The position numbers and the translations under genes were made by a program. From the NCBI GenBank assembly GCA_010093995.1, contig ML992529.1:51201-71200 (forward strand): a stretch of DNA of 20,000 nucleotides, in the 5' to 3' direction. This DNA is from Elsinoe ampelina. Its lineage: Eukaryota. The notes beneath the pieces were generated by a model, which was not told where the DNA came from, did not search any database, and worked only from the letters and a program-made list of their open reading frames with translations. Each line of letters starts with the position of its first letter. Position 1 is the stretch's first letter. Positions 4,254 to 18,250 of the stretch are shown here, in pieces.

Positions 4254-5588
4254 TTATTCTCTTCTCATGCTAATCAACGGTAAGCCGACCGTGGCTCGTG
4301 CCCACTGTAGTGCACTGTCCCATTCGCTCCCCTTCCTCCCCTTCAGCTTGTGTGAGATGTCATCCACCACCCTCGTGCTCACAAATCGTGCCCACCACGC
4401 CAACTTCATCTCGTTCAGCACGACTCCCCAATGCAGCAGAATCATCAGAGCTGATTGATTGTCATCTTCAATATCCTCGACAAAGGACCAACCAGCCCAA
4501 GCAAGTAGAGCGAGACACATGATTGGTTCCTCTTCGATCGACCTGAACAGCCAGTCGACAGCATCTCTGTGCGCTTTTGCTCGCGCGTCCTGCACATTTC
4601 CTGCTTGGATCTCAGCCTCAGCCATGGCTCGAAGCTCGCATAGAGGCTGCGAGAGCTTCTTCTTGCTGGCTTGCTGCCAGTCGTCCACCATTGGAGTTCG
4701 TGTATTCTTTGCTGCAAACGGGCTGTTCTCAATGTGACCTTGGCCACTTCTGACCAGCTGTGTTATGATCATGACTTGTTGAAATGACACGAGCACACCC
4801 TGAATTGGCGTGGCAGGGACATCACTTGGCGCGCTCGAGAGCTGAGGTGAGACCATGGAAAAAGTCATGTTGAGGATACTGAAGAGGTAGAGAGCATCAT
4901 AGTTCTCGCTCGATGCATTGGCGGCAGCTGCCCGGGCGGCTGACGTGGCAGCATCCTGATACTGTAAAGCCCGCTTCACGTACTGTATCGAGACTGTCCG
5001 GTCCTCGTTTTCTGCGCCCAGCTGTAAGCTTGACAACCCTAGGATCATGTCCATCAAAAAGTTGTGCTTGAAGGCTATATCCGTGGCGGATCCCAGCCAA
5101 ACTGGAATGTCCGTCTCGACACGGACCGCGCTGAGATGGGTTCTAGTGCACCATTGTCGCATGAGCTCGAGGTCTACATTGCGATCATAGGTGAAGGCGG
5201 ACAAATTCAACGACCTGAGCGAAGGAAGGTTGTGTCCATTATTGTCCTGCTGGACGGGCGCGCGCAGAGGCGACGGAGCTCCTTCTTGGGTAGCTACCAG
5301 TCCTGAGGCCATACTATCCACAGGTACCGCCGGTTTCGCATTGGTCCCGGTGCTCGGATCTGCGTGTACTGCTGTGGCGGGCGGTGGGGATCTCGCAGAA
5401 GGTGTGGCAGATGCAGGTCGTCCGATATAGAAGCACTGACTTTCGGCTTTTCGTACTTGACAATTGACACACGGGGGACCTTGCTCGTCACATTTGACTC
5501 GTCTCCTCTTGCAAGGAACGCAGCCGTTTCGTGATTTGGAGTGAGGTTTCCTGGTCTGGGCCCTGGTAGGTGGCGTCGGTGTGCTCAT
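4254..5588 (-). CDS. Zn(II)2Cys6 transcription factor, UPC2/Ecm22-like family
   Basis: RKPHSKSRNGCVPCKRRRVKCDEQGPPCVNCQVRKAESQCFY zinc cluster, with C-terminal motifs typical of the family (DLELMRQW, FLMDMILGLSSLQL, ALMILLHWGVVL, WWA, WARATVG). First ATG is at 5588; the ORF-track start at 5612 is not an ATG. Confidence 0.88.
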   Translation of the reverse strand: MSTPTPPTRAQTRKPHSKSRNGCVPCKRRRVKCDEQGPPCVNCQVRKAESQCFYIGRPASATPSARSPPPATAVHADPSTGTNAKPAVPVDSMASGLVATQEGAPSPLRAPVQQDNNGHNLPSLRSLNLSAFTYDRNVDLELMRQWCTRTHLSAVRVETDIPVWLGSATDIAFKHNFLMDMILGLSSLQLGAENEDRTVSIQYVKRALQYQDAATSAARAAAANASSENYDALYLFSILNMTFSMVSPQLSSAPSDVPATPIQGVLVSFQQVMIITQLVRSGQGHIENSPFAAKNTRTPMVDDWQQASKKKLSQPLCELRAMAEAEIQAGNVQDARAKAHRDAVDWLFRSIEEEPIMCLALLAWAGWSFVEDIEDDNQSALMILLHWGVVLNEMKLAWWARFVSTRVVDDISHKLKGRKGSEWDSALQWARATVGLPLISMRRE

Positions 5589-6341
5589 GGCGGACGCAGC
5601 ATGATTGATCAAAGCTTGGAGAGTCGTTTACGCCACACCGGTCCCGATTTACCTGATGAATGTTGAGATAGACATGGTTGGCCGAAATGAGAGGCTGATG
5701 ATGGCGAATTATCCTCAGCTCGCGTAGTAAGTCCAGTCGGAACGGCGTGACCAATGCTCCTGCTTCGGCTGGGGACAAAAATGATCCATATGAAAAATCC
5801 CTAGTTATGGATGTACTGATTATATTGATGTATCACCAGTAGACTGCGGCTGTATGCGGATCTGGAAATGTGGTTGATGTTGTGCATCTGGGAATCATGA
5901 TCGGCCGATGCCGGCAAGACGATGGAAGATGCAGCGGAACATCAGACAACCACACAATTGCTGTACAAGCGGTAATTAATATTGGTCCTATTATCTTACC
6001 ACCTCTGTCATTTCTGTAATCATCTGCTGACCGTGGAGTTCCTGTATCCGTGTAATTATGCAAAAGGTGGTCTTGAACTCCTTGCCAGTCTTCTTGTCCT
6101 TGTTCAAGACAATGCTATGGTTTGCAATCACTCCATTCTTGCTCTCTTCAGGAGTCTGCCTTTGCGAACTTCTTGTCAAGGTTGGTGGAGCTTTATGTGT
6201 TTTGATAACTGACTGTTCTTGGTGGTCCACCGGAGCAATTGGCTTGCCGACACTAGGGCAAGACCGCGGTGTCTGACTAAGATACAGGGCTTCTATACAG
6301 GCAGAGACCACGACCATTGTTGCCAGGTCTCGCCATCTGAG

Positions 6342-6380: not shown

Positions 6381-6930
6381 CCAACCATGCTCGAGACAGT
6401 CCAAGACATATTCGTCAGGCAGAGACTTGGAGCAGCATGTTTTCATATCGGAAGAACGTCGTTCTCTTTGATGTTGGTAGTGGAGCATGCGTAATACCAG
6501 CCTTAGTGGAGCAGAATTACTACAGCTGCAGTTCCAGGATGCCTAGGTCGCGGCGCTGTGTCTGGTATGCAGAGCAATATGCTTGACGCCGCAATCATGA
6601 AGCTGGTCAGTAGCGCTAGAAATATAAAATCTTCACCGCAGGTAGTATAACAAGGAATGCCATCAGCCATTGCGTATCATCGTAAGATGTCTAGTGCATG
6701 AGCGTAGAAGTAAGAACTAAGCCGCGCTTTAGATTTCCAAACTGACCCGGACCTCTTCGGCCACTCTGCACTCTGATTGGCTGCACATCTCCTGACCAAA
6801 ACAGCATCATCTCTCTTTTCATGTCCAAGGATCGCATCTCCCAAGACCTCGAGCTATTCAAACATATTTCTACCACCACGTTCCCCCTTCCGCGGCCATG
6901 GAATCGATATGACCCACCATCTCACCTTCA

Positions 6931-8724
6931 ATGGCCCGCTACAGCACACTGGGCGCGGGCGCCCCCACCACCACCAATCGCGACTCGCTCGAACTAGCAT
7001 CCCTAGCCTCCTCAAGCGGTAGTCCACGCTTGTCCGTCTCTTCCTCTCGCTCCGGCGCACCCTCCTCGCGGAAACTGTCCCTCGACACCTCCCCCAACGA
7101 TGCTCGACCCCTCGCCAACCGCCGCTCCTTCTCCGTCTCTTCTGCTTTCGACTTCGCGCCCAACCTCTTCCCCCTCTCCACCTCAGGAGCAGGCTACACA
7201 GCCATCGGCGCGCCCACCGCCGCGGGACCTGAAGCCGGCGGCGGCCTGGAGAAACACAAGAGCTTGACGTTCCTCAATGGCATGAGCTTGATCATCGGCC
7301 TGATCATCGGGTCGGGCATCTTCTCTTCGCCGGCGCAGGTGAACAAGAATGCGGGATCGCCTGGGGCGGCGCTGATCGTGTGGACAATAGCGGGGACATT
7401 GGCGTGGACGGGGGCGGCGAGCTATGCAGAACTTGGAGGGGCGTTGCCTTTGAGTGGAGGCCCCGCGGTGTATTTGAGCAAGATTTATGGGGAGTGGGCC
7501 GGGTTCTTGTTCACGTGGGTCGCGGTCACGGTGTTGAAACCTGGGTCGGCGGCCATCATTGCAATCATCTTTGGGGAGTACATTGTCAGGGCAGTCGTGG
7601 GGCCGGATGCGATGGAGGTGAGTCCGTGGTTGAACAAGGGAGTTGCGTTTGGGGGTTTGGCTGTCGCGACGTTGGTGAACTGCGTTTCGACCAAGATGGC
7701 GACGAGGAGCACGGATTTGTTGCTGGTCTTGAAGTTTGTGGCCCTGATTGGGGTGGGAGTGCTTGGTTTGGTGGTGTCAGTCACTGGATTCAGCTACAAG
7801 GGGCAGGCGAGTAAAAATTGGAAGAATATTGGATGGTTTGAGGGTACGAGTCACGATACCAGCGAGTGGGCGGTGGCGTTGTACGCAGGACTTTGGGCAT
7901 ACGATGGGTGGGACAACACCAACTATGTCACGGGAGAATTCATCAACCCTCGACGAGACCTTCCAAGGACGATACACACATCGCTGGCTATGGTAATTGT
8001 TTCTTATCTTCTGGCAAATGTCTCTTACCTTTTGGTCTTACCGATACACACTATCAACTCGTCCAATACGGTCGCAGTCACGTTCGGCCAACAAGTGTTT
8101 GGACCAGTTGGTGCTATTTCTTTTGCCTTGGTAGTGTCGTTATCATGCTATGGAAGTCTGGCGGCCACGACTTTTACGAGCTCGAGACTGGTGTATGCGG
8201 CATCGAGAGAAGGACTGCTGCCTTCGTGGTTTCAAAGACTGGGCTGGAGCAAAGACACCGCCGTGCGCTTACCAATGAGGACGAATCAGATGTCCAAGGC
8301 AGCGAAACTCTTCGCCGATGACGCTGGCTTCTTCTACACGCCGATCCTGGCCACCGTCCTCAATGCCGCCATCACAGCTGGGTACATCATTGTTGGAGAT
8401 TTTAGCACCCTCACCACCTTCTACGGCGTGGCAGGCTACACCTTCTACTTCTTCACGGTGCTCGGTTTGATCGTGCTGCGGGTGAGGGAGCCGGAACTCG
8501 ACAGACCATACAGGTGCTGGATCTCGACACCTGTCATCTTCTGCGCCGTCAGCATCTTCCTGCTGAGCCGGGCCGTCTTTGCGCAGCCGCTGCAGACCAT
8601 GATTGTAGTGGCCTTTATCATCGCAGGTGTGCCGCTGTACTGTCTTAGGATTTACTCTTCTGGGAGGCGTGGTCGAAGAGAAGGGCCTGACTGGAAGTTT
8701 TGGAAGCGATGGGGACGGTCATGA
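6931..8724 (+). CDS. APC-superfamily amino-acid permease, LAT/Mup1-like subfamily
   Basis: 597-aa intronless ORF with about 12 hydrophobic segments and signature motifs IIGSGIFSSP, SYAELG, GLWAYDGW, EFINPRRDLPR, SRLVYAASREG and LRVREPELDRPYR. Confidence 0.93.
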   Translation: MARYSTLGAGAPTTTNRDSLELASLASSSGSPRLSVSSSRSGAPSSRKLSLDTSPNDARPLANRRSFSVSSAFDFAPNLFPLSTSGAGYTAIGAPTAAGPEAGGGLEKHKSLTFLNGMSLIIGLIIGSGIFSSPAQVNKNAGSPGAALIVWTIAGTLAWTGAASYAELGGALPLSGGPAVYLSKIYGEWAGFLFTWVAVTVLKPGSAAIIAIIFGEYIVRAVVGPDAMEVSPWLNKGVAFGGLAVATLVNCVSTKMATRSTDLLLVLKFVALIGVGVLGLVVSVTGFSYKGQASKNWKNIGWFEGTSHDTSEWAVALYAGLWAYDGWDNTNYVTGEFINPRRDLPRTIHTSLAMVIVSYLLANVSYLLVLPIHTINSSNTVAVTFGQQVFGPVGAISFALVVSLSCYGSLAATTFTSSRLVYAASREGLLPSWFQRLGWSKDTAVRLPMRTNQMSKAAKLFADDAGFFYTPILATVLNAAITAGYIIVGDFSTLTTFYGVAGYTFYFFTVLGLIVLRVREPELDRPYRCWISTPVIFCAVSIFLLSRAVFAQPLQTMIVVAFIIAGVPLYCLRIYSSGRRGRREGPDWKFWKRWGRS

Positions 8725-10037
8725 AGATTACAATTGTTGTTTGCATAGCCTAGGGTAGGGTAGCATTGGATATCGGAACATTGCTGACCAATCAATTTTG
8801 TAAAATGCCTGGAGCATTTTCTGCTCTGAGCCAATGATTGTGCTGAGCGAGCGTGTCGTACAAAGAACAAGGCTCGTTACAAGAAAAGATGACTGTAGCC
8901 AGCGAGGATACTCGATGCTTCTTCAAGCTTGCTCCTGCTCGGTACTGCACCTATGCCGAAAATACCATGCTCGAAATAGAGGAAAGTGTATTGAATCGAT
9001 CCAATCAGAGAACCAAGACGGTGTCTACTGTAAAGGGAGATGTAGGTATTTTTGGACGCCGTACGCGTAGACAAGGGATCTCTGGCGAATACGATTGCCT
9101 TTCATAGCCCTGCCGCGGTGTTGGTTCCTCCGTTTGTGTCTCCAGCTGAACGGGAGCTTTCTTTCAAGGGAAAAATCAGGTCAGGATCGAGGTCAGGGCT
9201 GAAAACACACGTGCTCCGGCACCAACACCCTTCCCTGCACCGAGTCACGTTTACTGTATGTTGACGAGCAGTGTTGTTGCCTGCCACTATCGTCTAGCTA
9301 GAGACGGATCACAATTGCTCCGTCTGGTAGTACTATCGCGAGCAAGCAATGGCGATCCGATAATTGTTGTCACCCTCCTAGTCATCAGCGAATGCAACAA
9401 GGACATGGTCAAATGTACTTACTGCACCCATCAGAACGGCACCGGCATCAAGCATTACCCATGTTAGTCAAAACCGTGCGCTCCATGTCAGACACCAATT
9501 CCAATCAACGGGCCAGACGCAGGTACAGTACTCGTGTACCTTTTGGCTAACCAATCCAATCAGCTGGATCAGGCGACCGCTGCTGAGCCCATCATGCCCA
9601 TGACAGGCAGAATGACAGATGCGGCTGCATGATGATGGGCCAACTTATTATCTGACTCCATCAAAGGGACAAACACTACTACGACCTCACTTTGTCCAGT
9701 GGCAGTGCTTCCTTCAATTACACTTTACTCATCTCCATCAGCTCACGGATGCCTCGGACCATATCAGCCTTATTGCCTGACCTCGTGTCCCCAATCGAGA
9801 CATGTTCTTGCTGTTTTCCCTCTATAGGTCGGTTGTCTGCGGCCTCCCGAGCATGAGTCCCCTAGGCTACCAATGACTCTTGACACCGATTTTAGCACCG
9901 CCTGTGGTCCTTCACACGCTCGTTCTGCGTCAGAGGGTCAGCTAATCTTATTCATCCTTCGCATTGTCGTTGTTCTAGAAGGTTGTGTCTGCCTTGTCAC
10001 CGTCTGAGAGACAAGTGTGATTGGTGCCTGAGCAAGG

Positions 10038-10201
10038 CATATAAGGTGGCGTATATCTCTCTCATTCTTCTCGTTCTTCATCATCACCATCAAACACATC
10101 TTCCGTATAGCATCACTACCGCTACCGTCTACCACTACCAGTCAGACCAACCAACCATATCCCCAACAATACACCACCACACAAACATCACAACATCAAC
10201 A
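10038..10201 (+). promoter_or_regulatory. Putative core promoter and 5' UTR of the GRGGYN-repeat gene
   Basis: CATATAAG TATA-like element at 10038-10045, then a CT-rich tract, then a CA-rich G-poor leader ending in CAACATCAACA-ATG-G. This layout is typical of strongly expressed ascomycete genes. Confidence 0.55.
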
Positions 10202-10450
10202 ATGGGTCGTGGAGGATACAACACCCCCTTGGTCGTCTTCGGCAGAGGAGGCTACAACGCCCCCGCCCGAGCAGGCGAAGACGAGGGTCGAGGCGGGTAC
10301 AACGCCCCGGTCAACGCTGGACGAGGAGGCTACAACAAAGCCGGCGGCGAAGACGAGGGTCGAGGCGGGTACAACGGTCCCATTAACTTTGGGCGAGGAG
10401 GATACAACAAGGATGGCGGCGAAGACGAGGGTCGCGGTGGATACAACTAG
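10202..10450 (+). CDS. 82-aa GRGGYN tandem-repeat micro-protein (7 copies), function unknown
   Basis: M-GRGGYN-TPLVVF-GRGGYN-APARAGEDE-GRGGYN-APVNA-GRGGYN-KAGGEDE-GRGGYN-GPINF-GRGGYN-KDGGEDE-GRGGYN-stop. The hexapeptide copies differ only at synonymous positions. Strong start context. The upstream extension in the ORF track (from 9983) starts at a non-ATG codon and looks like promoter/UTR. Confidence 0.85.
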   Translation: MGRGGYNTPLVVFGRGGYNAPARAGEDEGRGGYNAPVNAGRGGYNKAGGEDEGRGGYNGPINFGRGGYNKDGGEDEGRGGYN

Positions 10451-10687
10451 ATCTGCATTTCATTTCCCTTCTCCTGGGACAGATTGGGCATAGCATTGCG
10501 AGGATCGGAAGGGATAGATCTGTACAACACCTCTCTTGCGACATATTTACACGACCACGGCATAGACACTGGACCATCGACACGACCATGTCCTTCATCA
10601 TTCGAGCATAGCAGGACCACGGACAGGAGGGAAGAATAGAGGAGCATCACCCCGGCGCCAGACAAGATGGGATACATTTCACTCGTT

Positions 10688-10701
10688 CACACACACACAC
10701 A
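10688..10701. repeat. (CA)7 microsatellite
   Basis: cacacacacacaca in the convergent 3' intergenic region. Confidence 0.7.
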
Positions 10702-10774
10702 TCTCCTTTTCGTCATACTTTCTCTCCGTCATCTCTACTAGACAGTTTCACCACTGAGAATGTTGATCCATTCC

Positions 10775-12661
10775 CTATTTGCCTACACAAAACCTCTCAA
10801 ACACAACCCCCAAGACCTCTTCCACATCTCCCTGTTCCCCCTTACCAGTGATCCGTGCCAGACACCCAGCCGCATTACGCAAGTGCTCAGCAGCGAGGAC
10901 AAAGTCTAGTTCCCCGTCACTCTCTCCCTGTATGTGTTCCATATCTTGCCTCATCCGTGACTCATTGCAGTGACCAGACCCGGACACCGCATGCCGTCCA
11001 ATGTCGAGAAACAGGCCAAGGTGCTCGTTACATTCTTCCAGCAAGAGGCGTTGGCGCTCGGTCGCCCCTAGAGATTCTTGCCAGATCGAGGTGTCAGCGT
11101 CCGAGGTATCCGCCGTGTCTGAGGCGGTCACCGCGCGGGTCATGGCGTGAAAAGTGGTGACGAGGCCGGAGAGGAAGGAAGGAATGCCAGCATCTGGAGA
11201 AGCAGTGGTTGGCTGTAGAGTAGTGTTGGGTCGGCATGATAGCATGTGAATGTCTTCTGACCGCAGACCAGGTATGGCTGCTTGAATGCCGCCCGTAATC
11301 TCGCTGTCTGGGAGGTCGGGCGGCTTCTGATCGATCTTGTTGACGACGACCAGAATGTTGTGTCCTTGGCCAACGAGTGTGCGTGCGGTGTCAAGAACCT
11401 CCTCGTCGAGCTTGAGGGCGGGACTGGAGCTGTCGGGCTCGAATGATAGGGCGACAATGACTAGGTCGCTCTCTGCTGCTCTCGCTTTTGCCCTTCGTAT
11501 GCCCTCTTGCTCCACAATCCCAATGTCCTGGCTTTTGTGTCGGCCGTTGTCCTCGGTAGGCAGGTTCAGAGCCCGTCTCAACCCTGCTGTGTCACCGAAT
11601 CGACAGAGGTAGCCACCGATATCAACCGATACCTCAACCACATCTCTTGTCGTTCCAGCCTCGTGGCTGACAATGGCTGCCTCCCGACCGACGATCCTGT
11701 TCAGCAGACTGCTCTTGCCAGCGTTTGGTGCTCCAAGGAGACTGATGCTAATACCGTTGCGGAGAAGTTCGCCTCTGACTGCGTTCCGGGTGTGAGCTTC
11801 AAGAGTCTTCTGTAACTCAAGGACCTGCTGGGCAACATTCCCAATGAGCTCCGCCGGCGACTCATCAAAATGCTGATCTTCCGAAAAGTCAATGAGTGCT
11901 TCAAGCTCGCCACGAGCAGACAACAAGAGCTGACGCCATGACTCGTAGCGTCGGGTAAGATTGCTGACAGTCCCTCGGACAGACAAACGTCTTTGTTGCT
12001 CTGTCACAGCTGACAACGAGTCTCCCAGAGCTTCGACCTGTGTCAAGTCCATGCGATCATTGAAGAAAGCTCGGCGTGAGAATTCTCCTGCTTCCGCGTA
12101 CCGAATGCTGCCAGTCTTGCCCGAGCACTTTGGGATGGCAGACAGCACAGCCTTGACGATGGCTGGACCTCCGTGTACATGAAGCTCGAGGACATCTTCT
12201 CCAGTGACGCTGTGGGGACCAGGGAAGAAGAGGATCAGAGCATTCGAGTCGAGCATAGTCTGCTGGGAGGGCGCCACGTGTGGCTCGTAGAGCGTGCGGA
12301 TAGCAGCATAGCGTGGTTTGGGCACCGTCTTCCCGGGACTCAATCCATGGTAGACGAGTCTTGCTCCAGGTCCGGAGATTCGGATGACAGCTATACCAGC
12401 TCTTCCAGGGGCAGTGGAAAGGGCATAGATCGTTGAACCTAATCCAAAGGCTCCATCACCGTGTAAGTCATCGGCTTGATTGTATGTCGGAGCTTCTATA
12501 TTCCCGCTTGCTCTTGTGCCTGCGGTCTCATGTGGATGATGTAATCGTGTGGATGAAATGGACCAAGGACCCCAGATGGGCCCCTCATGGGGGATTCGAA
12601 GGCGGTGCGCGGATCTTCGTGCTGACCTCAGATGTCGAAGGAGACATCTCGAAGCCAGCAT
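10775..12661 (-). CDS. MSS1: Mitochondrial tRNA modification GTPase (MnmE/TrmE family)
   Basis: TIYALSTAPGRAGIAVIRISG, SVTGEDVLELHVHGG, GEFSRRAFFNDRMDLTQVE, G1 GAPNAGKSS, GTTRD, DTAG, NKID and the C-terminal FCVGK. Arg-rich N-terminal presequence. Confidence 0.96.
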   Translation of the reverse strand: MLASRCLLRHLRSARRSAHRLRIPHEGPIWGPWSISSTRLHHPHETAGTRASGNIEAPTYNQADDLHGDGAFGLGSTIYALSTAPGRAGIAVIRISGPGARLVYHGLSPGKTVPKPRYAAIRTLYEPHVAPSQQTMLDSNALILFFPGPHSVTGEDVLELHVHGGPAIVKAVLSAIPKCSGKTGSIRYAEAGEFSRRAFFNDRMDLTQVEALGDSLSAVTEQQRRLSVRGTVSNLTRRYESWRQLLLSARGELEALIDFSEDQHFDESPAELIGNVAQQVLELQKTLEAHTRNAVRGELLRNGISISLLGAPNAGKSSLLNRIVGREAAIVSHEAGTTRDVVEVSVDIGGYLCRFGDTAGLRRALNLPTEDNGRHKSQDIGIVEQEGIRRAKARAAESDLVIVALSFEPDSSSPALKLDEEVLDTARTLVGQGHNILVVVNKIDQKPPDLPDSEITGGIQAAIPGLRSEDIHMLSCRPNTTLQPTTASPDAGIPSFLSGLVTTFHAMTRAVTASDTADTSDADTSIWQESLGATERQRLLLEECNEHLGLFLDIGRHAVSGSGHCNESRMRQDMEHIQGESDGELDFVLAAEHLRNAAGCLARITGKGEQGDVEEVLGVVFERFCVGK

Positions 12662-12831
12662 GCAGTCGATTGCACAGTACGTCGAAATGTCAGATTGTGA
12701 AGGGGATGATTGTTGATGGAGAAGAATTATTGTACTTGATCTTCACCGCAGTGCCAAGGCCGAGGCAAGGTTGCTATCGAACATCTTGCGACGGGCTCGG
12801 ATCCCTCGGGCATGAAGTCACATTCCTTGTC

Positions 12832-13659
12832 ATGTTTGAAGTGCCTTCGGCAAAGAGGTGGGAGGATTGAAATGACCTGCGACGCATTCGCTGACATGCT
12901 TCCAGAGTGCGCAGGGAGGAACTCGACGAGTCTGCTTCGTCACGACAGAGCTCACCTGACAATGATGCACTAGAGACGTTCAGAGCTGTCCAACTGGACT
13001 ACGAGATCGTACAACAGAACGACGACACCCAGCCCACCCTACAAGCCGGTGAAGAGGAGGATGCCGAATTCAATCTGTTCTCTAGACCCAGCAATGGGAC
13101 CGCGTCACAGCCGAGCAAGGTCACATTGAGGTCGCCAACACCTGACGCCGAGTGTGGCATAATCGTCAAAGAGAGACCGATTTCATACTACTTCACGGGA
13201 CCGATACCTGCAGAGCTTGCCAGAGAGTATCGAATTGCTGCCCTCAGTGGAGAAGATATCCGGCGGTGGTCACAAATACCATGGCCCGGAAGCAGGTACG
13301 GGTGGAAGGTCATAACTTTTCCCCCCAATACACGCAAGACGGGCAGTCCTGGTACGAGTGGTCGAGAGGAGCACAGCAGATACGGGACCATGCGGAAGCG
13401 ACTAGGGAAGAAGGGCAGGATAAAGAGGCGCAAGACATTGGCAACAAAGGCATTACAGCAAGAAGCTGAGGAGGCAGCCAAGGAAGTCAAGGAACGGGCG
13501 GATCGGGAGAAGAGGGCGAGGAAGAATCGCGACAAGAAATTCAAGAAGCGGGCACGAGACAAGCAGAAGAAGCAAGGTCTGGATGGAGCAGTCGCTGCTG
13601 GCACTGCTGCTGGCACTACTACTGGCAGTGGCAGTGAGAGTGGTGGGAATGAAATCTGA
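12832..13659 (+). CDS. Fungal DUF2011-like protein (basic C-terminus, possibly nucleolar)
   Basis: Exon 1 12832-12857; intron 12858-12905 (GTGGGA...GCTGAC...CAG); exon 2 12906-13659. The join gives MFEVPSAKRVRREEL. Motifs EFNLF, LRSPTP, RPISYYF, PWPG..WKVI and a Lys/Arg-rich tail REKRARKNRDKKFKKR. Confidence 0.8.
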
Positions 13660-15278
13660 TATTGCCATGCTCTTCTCGCCTCTGGTATCAAACCGGTGAT
13701 GCTCAAACAACCAAATGCCGATTTCGGTAGTGGTCAAAGCAAAGTCGTGAACCACTGAAGGGGCTCGGTATATCCCGCGGATATGTTTTCCAAATTCTGC
13801 TCTTAACTTACTATCGGGTCATATCGCAGAGATCACTGAGACCTTTTGTATAATAAGCGGTCATGGCTCGGCCGAGTGATGCACAGGCCGTCATCGGAAG
13901 CTGGCAAATGACGCGGCAATCGAGTGAGAGCTCCATTTATTCCACCTTTTAGAGGTGCAAGATGCGTCAATTGATCGCCCACCAACCACAATACCAAAGT
14001 CTAGAAGGGTCAATTGACGGAGAATTTACCTCGGTTGCCTGTCCGGACATGCGCAACTACTGTATTTGCGCAGAGCTTGCGACAAGGTCTGTGATTTGAA
14101 CACTGTGCGGGAGAAGGAATAGGCAGGTTCAAGTTGCCCCTCATCGGCCGGGCTGGATTGCCCAAATTGACAAGACGACCCCGCAGTAGCTATGAAGTGG
14201 GCGAGCTTGCAGGGAAACCAAGAAAAGGCACCCAGCGGTGACGGCAACGAATTGGAGACTGACAACCCCACCAGTTGGATTGGCGAGGGCCAAGACAAGA
14301 CGAATCACTCGTGGCTGCAGCTGGCGGAGCTCGATCTCGGTGTCCATCAGATCAAAGTCGACCATCTGGCGGGGTGTGATGGCATCGAGAGATGGACATC
14401 GCGTAGCGTGGCACATGGTGTCAATTGCATGACTAGAGCTGTATGTCCTCCTCGTAGCTGATCCTCCATCGCTGGCGGCGACGGATTAACGAGCGGCACG
14501 CAGAGTAGACCAGCCAGTCCTAACCAAGACCGGCTGGTGGTCGATGCTGGAACAAGTGCTAGTCCTCTCAAACCGAGAGCAACTCCCGCTCAGAGAGGTC
14601 AACGGGAGCTGACAAAAAGCTTGGATCCACGACCCAATGTCTGATCCGGACTTGAGAGATGTGGGATGGAGACGCAATATGGATACCTATTTGGACGAGG
14701 AGGCTCACCGCGTTCGGAGGCTGTCTGGTGACGCCAAAGAAGGCCCCGTGCAGTGCGAGTATAAGAAGAGCTAGACGCCCCGGGCTGGGAGCTTCTGCAG
14801 CTCATTGTGATAGCATTCTATAGCTCTTTTTTCTCGCTGATTGTCAGTCAATTGAAGTCGACGATAGCTTCTGGAAGCTCAAACAAACAAAGGTGTGTAA
14901 GATCCCTACCGACTTCGATCCGGGAAACAAGTGCAGAGACCAGCACTATCGCAGCAGAGGACGGCAGATGGGGCTCGCCTGGCGACAGACCAGAGACAGG
15001 CCTCGAAAAATAGCGTGCGCCGGGCTGTCCCTCTTTCTGAAGGAGAGAGGCAGAGAAAGCAACAGAGCGACGTCAGAGTTTGTGGGAGAAAGCTTGTTGC
15101 TCCGCATTTCCGGCCTGCAAAGAGTCAAGAGCTCCACCGGCATCGAAGATCATCCATATCTATTCACACAAAACACTGGCATAATCAGGACTAACATCCG
15201 CTGTCAGACTAATAAAACCCGTCTCAGCCCCGGCGACTCGTCTCGACTACCGCTTTTCCTCTCACAAACTCAATCAAA

Positions 15279-16689
15279 ATGGTATTTGCCCGTGCAGCTT
15301 CTCGTCTTTCCCGCCCCGCCGCAGCTAGCCTGCGAGCTACCCCCTCCTCTTCCTCCTCCTTCAGACCTCTCAATTCTGCTTTCCGTCAAGCTGGAGGTGT
15401 CAGGACGCTGACAGCAACTTCTTCGCGACAGGGCAAAGTACTTCTCGTTCTCTACGATGTAAGTTTGACTCGATTGGGAGATCCTCGTACCTGAGCTGAC
15501 CCCGCATACCAGGGCGGCAAGCACGCCACGGACGAACCCAAGATGTTGGGTACCACCGAGAACGAGCTCGGCCTGAGGAAGTGGATTGAGGAGCAAGGCC
15601 ACGAATTGGTCACCACTTCCGACAAGGAGGGTGAGAACTCGACCTTTGACCAGCACTTGGTTGACGCCGAAGTCATCATCACCACTCCGTAAGCTTGGCC
15701 TGCAATATACCGATAAGCTCACGCCACAGCAACTGACAACAACCACAGCTTCCACCCTGGCTACCTCACCGCCGAGCGTCTGGCAAAGGCAAAGAACCTC
15801 AAGATCGCCGTCACCGCTGGCATCGGTTCCGACCATGTCGATCTCAATGCCGCCAACAAGACCAACGGAGGTATCACCGTCGCCGAAGTCACCGGCTCCA
15901 ATGTCGTCTCCGTCGCCGAGCACGTCGTCATGACCATCCTCACCCTCGTCCGCAACTTTGTCCCTGCCCACGAAATGATCGCCCGCGGTGACTGGGACGT
16001 CGCCGAGGTCGCCAAGAACGAGTACGACCTCGAGGGCAAGGTTGTCGGTACCGTCGCCGTTGGCCGTATTGGTGAGCGTGTCCTGCGCCGCCTGAAGCCG
16101 TTCGACTGCAAGGAACTCCTCTACTTCGACTACCAGCCATTGAGCCCCGAGAAGGAGAAGGAGATTGGCTGCCGCCGTGTCGACAACCTCGAGGAGATGC
16201 TCGCCCAGTGCGACGTCGTCACCATCAACTGCCCACTCCACGAGAAGACCCGCGGTCTCTTCAACAAGGATCTCCTGTCCAAGATGAAGAAGGGTGAGCA
16301 TTCATCGACTCGCTTGCTCATTCAAATGCTAACTTCTTACAGGCTCATGGCTCGTCAACACCGCCCGTGGTGCCATCGTCGTCAAGGAGGATGTCGCCGA
16401 CGCCCTCAAGTCCGGCCACCTCCGCGGCTACGGTGGTGACGTCTGGTTCCCTCAGCCCGCCCCCAAGGACCACCCTCTGCGCTACGCCCAATACCCATGG
16501 GGAGGAGGTAACGCCATGGTCCCCCACATGTCCGGTACCTCGATCGACGCCCAGCAGCGCTACGCCGCCGGCACAAAGGCTATTCTCACCAGCTACTTCA
16601 GCGGCAAGCACGATTATAAGCCTGAGGACTTGATCGTCCAGGGTGGTGACTACGCCACCAAGGCTTACGGTCAGAGAATCCACGCATAG
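15279..16689 (+). CDS. fdh: NAD-dependent formate dehydrogenase
   Basis: Exons: 15279-15458 (or ATG 15279-15281 plus 15432-15458 if intron 1 is spliced), 15513-15688, 15749-16293, 16343-16689. Motifs [47 protein letters not shown], Rossmann fold [32 protein letters not shown], and [11 protein letters not shown]. Confidence 0.97.
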
Positions 16690-17196: not shown

Positions 17197-17949
17197 TCAT
17201 CCCCATCTCCCACCCGCCCCACTGGAGCCATACCCTTGCTGCCCCCCCTGCCCGCCATAACCCCCAGGACTCGCTGCCCTCCCACCACCCGCCTGCCCCC
17301 ACAACCTCGCCTTTAACCTCTCCTGCGCCGTGCCCCCGCCGCCCTGACTCCCAGTCCCACTCTGCAACCCCATCCCACCCGCTCCTCCCCCGGCACTGCT
17401 CCCGAACTGCGGACTCCCCACCCCGTCCCTCCTCCCTCCCAACTGCTGACTCTGATAACTCCCCGCTCTTTGACTCGGCAACGGCCTCACGTTGGCTTGT
17501 GGCGCGAGGTGTCCCCCCGCGCCACCTCCAAGCGGCTGCCTGCCTTGGCCACGCAGCGAGACTGGCGAGGCGACGCGTCCTGGTTGGGCCTGTGCGGGAG
17601 GATCCCAGAGATCGGACAGTGCAGAGCGGGAGTTGTTCGCCGAGGTGCTCAGCATGGGAGCCTGTTGCTGGGCTGGGGTAGAGGAGTTCCAGAGATTGGC
17701 GTACGAGGAGCCGATGCTGGATTGGGACGGGGGAGGGGGAGGGGGAGGCGGGGCGACGACTTTCTTCGGGTCAGGGGGCAGCCAGTCGGGGAGGGTGTGC
17801 GTTTTCTCGGTGTAGTACGCGCGCAGCACGCGGCAGATGTGGGAGTCGTCTTCGGTGTCGCCGTCGCCTTCGGAGGTGAGGAGGTTGCGGCGGAGGGAGT
17901 TGTAGCGGTCTGTGGTGGAGGTGAGGAGGTTGGAGAGGTAGCCTGACAT
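17197..17949 (-). CDS. Mso1-like exocytosis protein (N-terminal Sec1-binding domain, Gly/Pro/Gln-rich tail)
   Basis: MSGYLSNLLTSTTDRYNSLRRNLLTSEGDGDTEDDSHICRVLRAYYTEK...PDWLPPDPK matches the Mso1 Sec1-binding pattern; AQERLKARLWG near the C-terminus. ATG at 17949. Confidence 0.82.
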   Translation of the reverse strand: MSGYLSNLLTSTTDRYNSLRRNLLTSEGDGDTEDDSHICRVLRAYYTEKTHTLPDWLPPDPKKVVAPPPPPPPPSQSSIGSSYANLWNSSTPAQQQAPMLSTSANNSRSALSDLWDPPAQAQPGRVASPVSLRGQGRQPLGGGAGGHLAPQANVRPLPSQRAGSYQSQQLGGRRDGVGSPQFGSSAGGGAGGMGLQSGTGSQGGGGTAQERLKARLWGQAGGGRAASPGGYGGQGGQQGYGSSGAGGRWG

Positions 17950-18072
17950 GTTGGGGATGAGCTTGAGGGCCGGCCTCAAGTGGGTGGTGAGGTGTGGTTG
18001 ACGAGGGGTTGGAGCGGAGGACAAGGGGGAAACGGCTGTGACGATGGTGGATGCCCGAGGACTTGGCGGGGA

Positions 18073-18142
18073 TGGTGTTGTAATGGAAGGCTGGTACAGC
18101 TTCTCTGGTGTTGTAATGGAAGGCTGGTACAGCTTCTCTGGT
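18073..18142. repeat. Perfect 33-bp tandem duplication at the 5' end of the LTR
   Basis: tggtgttgtaatggaaggctggtacagcttctc twice (18073-18105 and 18106-18138), followed by a further tggt. Confidence 0.92.
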
Positions 18143-18250
18143 ACTGAAGAACTGGTACTGATGAGTCAGCGCACGCACAGTAGATAAATCGGTTATTGTA
18201 ACTCTCTGAATAAAACACACGTCTCTCGATCCGATTTGCTAGTTATAACA
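18076..18250 (+). repeat. 5' LTR of the Ty1/copia element (start may instead be 18109)
   Basis: Begins TGTTGTAA and ends TTATAACA: TG...CA termini forming an 8-bp inverted repeat with one C-to-T mismatch. AATAAA at 18209-18214. Directly followed by the PBS. Confidence 0.7.

Follow-up and report, generated by a model that had tools for sequence, protein, structure and literature searches.

The 20,000-nucleotide stretch of Elsinoe ampelina DNA analyzed here (assembly GCA_010093995.1, contig ML992529.1, positions 51,201 to 71,200 of the forward strand; called the window below, with position 1 as its first letter) carries a small open reading frame (ORF) whose 82-residue product contains seven copies of the hexapeptide GRGGYN. 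This ORF is a real protein-coding micro-gene whose peptide is under selection, and it is one member of a large fungal family with the consensus G-R-x-G-Y-N. For the product itself we favour an intact, disordered and multivalent motif array. The features on which the argument is built are as follows.

10202..10450, plus strand: GRGGYN micro-gene ORF, ATG to stop, 82 residues, stop codon within the coordinates
10205..10222, plus strand: GRGGYN unit 1, immediately 3' of the Met codon
10241..10258, plus strand: GRGGYN unit 2
10286..10303, plus strand: GRGGYN unit 3, same DNA as unit 5
10319..10336, plus strand: GRGGYN unit 4
10358..10375, plus strand: GRGGYN unit 5, same DNA as unit 3
10391..10408, plus strand: GRGGYN unit 6
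10430..10447, plus strand: GRGGYN unit 7, immediately 5' of the stop codon
10274..10447, plus strand: 72-nucleotide (24-residue) higher-order repeat (Tandem Repeats Finder score 243, 2.4 copies, 85% matches, no indels)
10040..10046, plus strand: TATA-like box TATAAGG, about 160 nucleotides 5' of the ATG, putative promoter element as read from the sequence
10451..10781, strand not given: transcribed tail region in RNA contigs, common with the convergent MSS1 3' end
10775..12661, minus strand: convergent neighbour MSS1/TrmE, mitochondrial tRNA-modification GTPase (Pfam TrmE_N, MnmE_helical, MMR_HSR1)

Repeat structure, selection and transcription

The product has the layout MGRGGYN-TPLVVF-GRGGYN-APARAGEDE-GRGGYN-APVNA-GRGGYN-KAGGEDE-GRGGYN-GPINF-GRGGYN-KDGGEDE-GRGGYN. 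Met stands immediately before unit 1 and the stop codon immediately after unit 7, so that both ends of the protein coincide with motif boundaries, as a preliminary description made from the sequence alone had noted. The same description took the whole product to be seven GRGGYN; the seven units are indeed invariant, but they account for only 42 of the 82 residues and alternate with six spacers of 5-9 residues, four of which start with x-P. In the higher-order repeat the unit is acidic spacer-GRGGYN-xPxNx-GRGGYN. The degenerate DNA pattern GGNMGNNNNGGNTAYAAY for G-R-x-G-Y-N has seven matches in the window, all within the ORF, where 0.01 would be expected, and seven were reached in 0 of 200 shuffles. 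Over this stretch 10202..10450 is the sole plus-strand ATG ORF of at least 30 residues, and its start context is caacaATGg.

At the DNA level the seven 18-nucleotide units exist in six distinct versions, exactly those listed in the preliminary description. They vary at nucleotide positions 3, 4, 6, 9 and 12 of the 18, and every variable position is synonymous (5/5). This corresponds to at least 10 changes, all of them silent; as the silent share of the possible single-base changes is 26.7%, the probability under no constraint is P ~2e-6. A metagenome scan, in which 4 loci (L001-L004) were confirmed out of 598 pattern matches, gave the same picture, since at each of L001-L004 the differences between motif copies are confined to nucleotide positions 3, 4, 6, 9 or 12. 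Because the unit differences are all synonymous, here and in 4/4 metagenome homologues, selection acts on the peptide, which bears out what had been concluded from the window alone. The Tyr-Asn pair of the motif is encoded by TAC AAC in 19/19 copies from the five loci (window and L001-L004), with the Gly and Arg codons free to vary. Codon bias, if the gene is highly expressed, or a constraint on the nucleotide sequence itself could explain this invariance.

Transcription was analyzed with RNA contigs from four runs (X1, X2, X6 and X7, from three studies) aligned over 6500-16500. We take these runs as spliced RNA because GT..AG introns of the neighbouring genes are missing from their contigs, as seen in all four runs for example at 14890-15206 and 15688-15749. 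Contigs cover the ORF in 4/4 runs, so the transcription check proposed earlier came out positive, and in X2, X6 and X7 the ORF shows a single difference, 10309 G>C, which is silent (Pro36). The contigs span 10347-10729 (X7), 10347-10781 (X6) and 10347-13552 (X1) and reveal neither strand nor transcript ends. Since one X1 contig bridges both genes, the 3' ends of the convergent micro-gene and MSS1 transcripts probably overlap. This contig (10347-13552) joins the 3' half of the micro-gene, the whole of MSS1 and most of the adjoining DUF2011 gene, from which the intron 12856-12903 has been removed. In X1 the contig word depth is 6947-8816 over the ORF versus 685 for MSS1 and 68 for the permease gene upstream, and in X2, X6 and X7 the ORF depth does not exceed that of its neighbours; contig depth cannot rank genes, and we read these values as a hint of strong and condition-dependent expression. 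Downstream of the TATAAGG box the sequence is C/T-rich and then becomes a CA-rich leader, and there is no ATG in 10040-10201.

The exact 82-residue sequence was not found in a collection of 15 billion proteins, and the closest relative retrieved is at most ~63% identical, which is why the Elsinoe micro-gene copy seems to be unannotated. Small ORFs of this kind are regularly overlooked: the searched collections do not contain the Elsinoe copy, while MSS1 is annotated in four Elsinoe species.

A fungal family with the consensus G-R-x-G-Y-N

A word-seeded protein search returned 27 proteins of 57-126 residues at E<=0.01, all of which contain at least two GRGGYN and 22 of which finish in this motif. 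The search for longer proteins added five. Four are small ORFs with a 5' leader that was read through by a prokaryote-style gene caller, and the fifth, P0031 (274 residues), is genuine: it is S/P-rich and disordered and has 8 GRGGYN. We aligned the query with 20 of the 27 matches (alignment A1), leaving out P0002, P0008, P0010, P0012, P0018, P0025 and P0027 with their long extensions, signal peptides or read-through. The A1 profile matched 133 clusters at E<=1e-3 among 1.84 billion representatives, 29 of them at <=1e-10 and 0 at <=1e-30. At least two G-R-x-G-Y-N are present in 149 of the 151 proteins retrieved, the exceptions being P0043, with a mix of GRAGYN and GRSGYN, and P0109. The latter consists of repeats of LQFGRGCYAAET without GRxGYN and was discarded as a profile false positive. 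The search for relatives that had been suggested thus led to a family defined by G-R-x-G-Y-N rather than by GRGGYN alone.

Within this unit G1, R2, G4, Y5 and N6 are fixed, and the third residue, counted over 606 copies, is G in 371, S in 190, D in 25, K in 9, R in 8, A in 2 and H in 1. One and the same x residue is used throughout the protein in 133/149 relatives, despite diverged DNA copies. Most proteins contain three (51 proteins) or four (46) copies, and 95/149 end exactly at the motif. The spacers range from 1 to 70 residues, mostly 5-12, with 1-2 residues in 14 cases, and their charge depends on the lineage, being acidic in some and basic or neutral in others. Before the motif N-F or acidic residues are preferred and after it K/R or x-P; Pro is the commonest residue at +2 (164/606) and at -4 (109/606), and the residue following the motif Asn varies (K, R, G, A, T, Q). 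Some members begin with M-GRGGYN as the window protein does, others with 12-20 residues ahead of the motif. Conservation is limited to the motif, the fact of its repetition and the flanks, and does not extend to leader or net charge.

These data bear on one of three readings put forward in the preliminary description, namely that GRGGYN serves as an invariable sequence for recognition or cleavage, with the Pro-containing spacers TPLVVF, APVNA and GPINF as the cores of peptides that are released or cyclised. The x-P start of 4/6 spacers and the frequency of Pro at +2 and -4 in the relatives would fit. However, the motif is invariant in the 149 relatives, and it is the spacers that vary, highly so in length; many consist wholly of acidic residues or are Pro-free Gln/Ala linkers, and the short x-P-hydrophobic-N/D-x linkers are semi-conserved and not diversified as cores usually are. 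Nor was a prolyl oligopeptidase or another macrocyclase found nearby. We consider this reading very improbable.

The motif occurs in three protein contexts. Bare micro-proteins without a signal peptide are the majority type and include the window protein. In the second context the protein has a signal-peptide-like start, judged by reading (14/149), and at least two GRxGYN stand directly before KR/RR in 10/149 proteins. In the third, which is based on a Pfam scan of 20 of the 151 proteins, arrays are embedded within large intracellular proteins.

P0010, P0012, P0027, P0042, P0058, P0084, P0096, P0106, P0113, P0120, P0126, P0133, P0137, P0143: relatives with signal-peptide-like start
P0074: calpain-domain protein with motif array
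P0134: aquaporin with the array in its cytoplasmic C-terminal tail
P0038: MBOAT protein with array
P0031, P0049, P0142, P0045: S/P-rich disordered proteins with arrays
P0033, P0055, P0044: annotated Hypoxylon and Chaetomium thermophilum array proteins

Three of the long proteins, P0033, P0055 and P0146, two of them from Hypoxylon, have in common an N-terminal domain of ~180 residues without a Pfam family (…IPPE VL.MPFD…FPWLP…YNPRYLY…), followed by up to 15 GR[GD]GYN-QP units and then a basic tail. P0044 (Chaetomium thermophilum, 740 residues) carries an extended array of the GRSGYNGI type, which makes up its C-terminal half.

Organism names, taken from the word-seeded search and a look-up of 20 of the 151 proteins, are distributed as follows.

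Small GRGGYN proteins: Glarea, Cadophora, Venustampulla, Amylocarpus (Leotiomycetes); Exophiala (Eurotiomycetes)
Small GRSGYN proteins: Neurospora crassa NCU04148, Sordaria macrospora SMAC_04439, Anthostomella (Sordariomycetes)
GRDGYN: Lichina (Lichinomycetes)
Long array proteins: Hypoxylon; Chaetomium thermophilum CTHT_0024160
Signal-peptide forms: Lentinus tigrinus (Agaricomycetes); Aspergillus homomorphus

Together with the window species Elsinoe, a Dothideomycete, the family covers at least five classes of Ascomycota, to which signal-peptide forms in a basidiomycete are added. The annotation of the named members does not go beyond 'hypothetical' or 'glycine-rich protein'. The ESM Atlas holds one 195-member Ascomycota cluster (76 residues, score 0.81), which we treat as a lead only. 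NCU04148 provides a member in the model organism N. crassa and makes the function directly testable by genetics.

At one of the metagenome loci, L001, a 40-kb contig from a deeply diverged fungus, the homologue ends in …MAVFGRGGYNAPVDSGRGGYNAPVDAGRGGYNAPLKRGPDDDDEAEDGRGGYN-stop and is convergent with MSS1 as in the window. Its MSS1 is 62% identical to the window MSS1 in the N-terminal part and 35% in the C-terminal part. Matches to the permease and DUF2011 neighbours were not found in L001 by tblastn, and MSS1 is the only neighbour common to both. Judged from this sequence comparison, the micro-gene is old and its linkage to MSS1 conserved. We use MSS1 as a synteny anchor and do not claim that it acts jointly with the micro-protein.

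With these relatives at hand the possibility of a non-functional sequence, either a transcribed repeat or a chance ORF from DNA slippage, can be weighed. It would agree with the missing annotation, the absence of the exact sequence from the 15-billion collection and the limited identity of the relatives. Against it stand the synonymous-only divergence of the units here and at 4/4 other loci, an ORF that starts and stops by one rule in different fungal classes, together with conserved synteny, and the observed transcription. We regard a non-functional origin as scarcely credible.

Comparison of the window protein with Pfam gave no family at E<=10, and among solved structures (PDB) the best match was only Rrp7 at E = 0.26, in line with the earlier expectation that no characterised family would be matched. 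In the full-text literature GRGGYN is nowhere described as a fungal repeat; the occurrences examined were the proline-tyrosine nuclear localization signal (PY-NLS) of Hrp1 and a typesetting artefact (…RGGY-NH2). GRSGYN and GRDGYN as well as the names SMAC_04439 and GLAREA_01001 are absent from the full-text literature searched, in which NCU04148 appears only as an entry in a list of differentially expressed genes. We thus found no Pfam family, solved structure or paper that describes the G-R-x-G-Y-N family. What goes beyond the preliminary description is accordingly the fungal family with its large size and its age, its consensus, the three architectural contexts, the linkage to MSS1 and the Neurospora member.

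Nature and mode of action of the product

The 82-residue protein has 32.9% Gly, a grand average of hydropathy (GRAVY) of -1.196 and a pI of 6.2, and it contains no Ser and one Thr. A signal-peptide-like N-terminus was not seen on reading the sequence (N-terminus MGRGGYNTPLVVFGRGG; the longest hydrophobic run, LVVF, has 4 residues), and there are 0 dibasic pairs. The earlier statement that signal peptide and Kex2 sites are missing therefore holds for the window protein; some relatives carry both. AlphaFold2, run on a 21-sequence alignment, predicted no secondary structure, with a mean predicted local distance difference test (pLDDT) of 53.9 and a predicted template modelling score (pTM) of 0.11. 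A four-copy complex prediction of the protein (score 0.00, mark 0.32) gave no answer and counts neither way. N-myristoylation of the Gly after Met was considered and dropped, as the consensus excludes Arg right after the Gly.

Hydrophilins are defined by Gly >6% and high hydrophilicity. The values of the window protein fall within this definition, and it is also small, predicted to be disordered and shows an RNA depth that is apparently strongly condition-dependent. Hydrophilins are, however, a physico-chemical class without an invariant hexamer, and no sequence relation between the protein and such a Pfam family was found.

A closer parallel is offered by Par32/Amu1, for which we compared the motif and ran the Pfam model that we take to be DUF3602. 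This model matched neither the window protein nor 6 relatives at E<=10, nor 20 relatives at E<=0.01. In the passages of PMC4501750 consulted, the pattern is given as G-R-G-G-X-[AG]-N-X(30,110)-G-R-G-G-X-[AG]-N, and mutation of the Arg in all four motif copies abolished Mep1 binding; excerpts of PMC6249832 add that motif mutation abolished nuclear accumulation and TORC1 reactivation. As far as these parts of the two papers go, the GRxGYN proteins share with Par32/Amu1 the restriction to fungi, the disorder and the repetition of an invariant Gly-Arg-Gly-Gly...Asn (3-6 copies in Par32) with variable sequence between, and the long S/P-rich relatives P0031, P0049 and P0142 have a Par32-like layout. 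By contrast, the motif is one residue shorter and contains Tyr (GRGGYN vs GRGG-x-[AG]-N), the window spacers have 5-9 residues vs 30-110 and the protein 82 residues vs 295, as given in the same excerpts. GRGG.[AG]N occurs in 0 of the 151 relatives, and in the window GRGGYN precedes T, A, K or G, so that the Par32 pattern is not matched. Par32/Amu1 is further characterised by binding and inhibition of Mep ammonium transporters with Npr1-dependent phosphorylation; the window protein contains no Ser and a single Thr. We did not assign the protein to Par32, as it fits neither the published pattern nor the Pfam model; the resemblance would be one of logic, homology not being shown by the motif comparison and the negative Pfam scans. 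The trailing G-I of the P0044 units recalls the GRGGAGNI form quoted for Par32 in those excerpts.

The second of the earlier readings to be weighed was an unprocessed RGG/Tyr low-complexity protein. FUS-type proteins carry Arg/Tyr 'sticker' regions, and the window protein resembles these and RGG/RG boxes in being Gly-rich and disordered with regularly spaced Arg and Tyr; a multivalent weak association is plausible. A model RGG peptide is discussed in bioRxiv 10.1101/2020.07.30.229062. The family differs from both in its fixed hexamer (invariant Gly4 and Asn6, variable third residue), in its acidic spacers and in its occurrence also in secreted proteins. In a stricter form of this reading the protein would be a canonical RGG box, that is RNA-binding and arginine-methylated with RGG as the functional element, for which its seven RGG triplets, each beside Tyr, and its Gly-rich, predicted disordered chain can be cited. 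As Thandapani et al. reportedly defined it in 2013, an RGG box needs gaps of 0-4 between the triplets. The gaps in the window protein are 9, 12, 8, 10, 8 and 10 residues; the third residue varies in the family while the other five are fixed, with RSG, RDG or RKG in place of RGG; the acidic spacers would oppose RNA binding; and secreted relatives exist. We therefore rejected membership in the canonical RGG boxes and find such a function unlikely. From the earlier reading, the intact and disordered state probably stands, whereas the emphasis on RGG does not.

The picture that we favour, with about an even chance of being right, is that of an intact, disordered, multivalent motif array. The chain would be intrinsically disordered, very hydrophilic and near-neutral; each GRGGYN would act as a short functional module presenting Arg and Tyr in a fixed Gly/Asn frame, the spacers would be linkers only and the function would arise from multivalency. 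Two options can be envisaged. The units may stick to one another, or to GRxGYN copies of larger proteins, through Arg-Tyr contacts within the fixed Gly/Asn frame, giving a reversible sticker, condensate or hydrogel scaffold. Such self-association would explain both the uniform x within proteins and the usefulness of the motif outside the cell. Alternatively, the units may fill several copies of one partner site, by analogy with GRGGAGN of Par32/Amu1. The uniform x fits units that match each other or one partner. Because the hexamer, its repetition and its flanks are fixed while leader, charge and spacers are free, and because the hexamer is embedded in intact large proteins, the simplest interpretation takes GRxGYN as a portable module that acts within intact disordered chains, and the micro-protein as a bare dense array of it. 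In addition, no peptide-tailoring or protease gene is common to the window and L001.

Several points weigh against an intact array. The intactness of the product, like the binding target of its motif, is something we infer from sequence comparison. Signal-peptide-like starts in 14/149 relatives and repeated GRxGYN-KR/RR in 10/149 form a released-peptide architecture, and the end at the motif in 95/149 relatives and in the window protein is what one would expect if the units were peptides ending in ...GYN. That the motif is used within the cell as well as outside it speaks against a single specific partner in the cell interior; the Pfam and PDB comparisons yielded neither a partner nor a match to a family of tested mechanism. 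Some of the long 'proteins' are gene-caller read-through of 5' leaders and not true fusions, and homogenisation of the repeats can also yield a uniform x within a protein.

These points lead to the strongest competitor, in which the product is a leaderless multi-core precursor that is cut after, or trimmed to, each Asn. The resulting peptides of 6-15 residues, such as (M)GRGGYN, TPLVVFGRGGYN and APVNAGRGGYN, would have a constant C-terminal GRGGYN and variable N-terminal parts and would act as signals or be modified in trans, and the relatives with signal peptide and KR/RR would give the same kind of peptide via the secretory pathway. Secreted forms speak for it: in relatives such as P0126 (Lentinus tigrinus), P0058, P0084, P0120, P0137, P0143 and P0027, a start resembling a signal peptide is followed by acidic-GRxGYN-KR/RR units. 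Kex2/Kex1-type processing is established for KEPs (Kex2-processed repeat proteins), and in the relatives just named, which often end with the last unit, it would leave ...GYN ends. Acidic residues often precede the motif in secreted and non-secreted forms alike, and the depth over the ORF in X1 is a weak hint of high expression, which is frequent in precursors. The motif-terminal end of the 95 relatives can be cited here as well, but it is equally expected for a bare array, because any stop after the last functional residue is tolerated.

The window protein resembles KEPs, as described in parts of PMC6339444 and PMC7329392, in its tandem copies of one short peptide (7 identical GRGGYN vs at least 3 in the KEP criterion), and some relatives show the full KEP architecture of signal peptide, motif and KR/RR. 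Unlike KEPs, the window protein has neither signal peptide nor dibasic KR/RR sites, and we excluded it from this class on both counts. GRxGYN is also absent from the KEP paper texts searched, including PMC7329392, and from the searched supplements of the KEP surveys PMC6339444 and PMC7329392, the PDF supplements lying outside the search and possibly listing signal-peptide relatives.

Among other precursors, UstA carries many identical cores, and dikaritins are recognised by a signal peptide, KR-flanked cores and UstYa/DUF3328 plus tyrosinase-type genes, while MSDIN/cycloamanide precursors combine a conserved leader with a single Pro-bounded core and are partnered by a prolyl oligopeptidase. 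The micro-gene has in common with MSDIN, borosin and UstA precursors that it is a small, possibly highly expressed ORF. It differs from these precursors in having neither a conserved leader nor a single Pro-flanked core; Met is followed at once by the motif, of which there are seven copies. No methyltransferase, prolyl oligopeptidase (peptidase S9), tyrosinase or UstYa/DUF3328 was detected by Pfam in 53 ORFs of the window or in 37 ORF scans of L001. With none of the features of either found, a dikaritin or MSDIN precursor was ruled out.

Further arguments against a precursor are the residue after Asn, which is variable and offers no uniform cleavage site, and the presence of the motif within large intracellular proteins, from which release is unlikely. 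The idea of GRGGYN as a released core, also raised in the preliminary description, thus gains from the secreted relatives with dibasic sites and from the motif-terminal ends and stays a rival that we do not favour; we see it as possible, with clearly less weight than the intact array. A wider version would make all GRxGYN micro-proteins leaderless precursors of fungus-wide peptides with a constant C-terminal hexapeptide and differing N-terminal parts, produced by two routes: secretory Kex2 processing in the signal-peptide relatives and cytosolic cleavage after Asn in the micro-proteins. Animal FMRFamide-type precursors likewise combine a constant C-terminal part with variable N-terminal parts. 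This version appears somewhat more doubtful still.

Micro-proteins, secreted repeat proteins and the disordered parts of enzymes and channels all employ one and the same hexapeptide, which makes GRxGYN a candidate for a new portable fungal module, serving as a binding motif or self-association sticker, or alternatively the hallmark of a new peptide family. If the precursor reading were true, this would represent a new class of fungal signalling or modified peptides.

Neighbouring genes

Besides MSS1 the window contains the following genes.

4254-5627, minus strand: Zn2Cys6 factor
6913-8724, plus strand: amino-acid permease
12895-13659, plus strand: DUF2011
15717-16686, plus strand: 2-hydroxyacid dehydrogenase
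17197-18165, minus strand: Mso1-like protein

The 53 ORFs scanned with Pfam comprise 11 ORFs plus 42 of the 72 stop-to-stop ORFs of at least 90 residues, the rest of which overlap genes already named. No tailoring-type enzyme or dedicated protease was found among them, as the preliminary description had expected for tailoring enzymes, and in L001 the 37 ORF scans, covering 20 kb, likewise gave no protease or tailoring gene.

The window MSS1 is 96% identical to the named relative of Elsinoe ampelina, 86% to that of E. batatas, 75% to E. fawcettii and 72% to E. australis, and ~60-64% identical to those of other Dothideomycetes orders. In the DUF2011 region 12904-13678 the window differs from X2, X6 and X7 at 22-27 positions, and X2 also has a 9-base deletion at 13593, compared with only 2 differences over the adjoining 2 kb of MSS1. 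DUF2011 is thus a locally fast-evolving gene.

Between the permease and the micro-gene, an X1 contig at 6835-9600 drops 48 bases at 9373-9422 with CT..AC ends, corresponding to a minus-strand GT..AG intron, and there may be an unannotated spliced minus-strand transcript in this region. On the other side, a multi-intron gene at 14440-16342 on the plus strand has six GT..AG joints and a D-2-hydroxyacid dehydrogenase domain, and in X2, X6 and X7 no RNA contigs are deeper than those over this gene.

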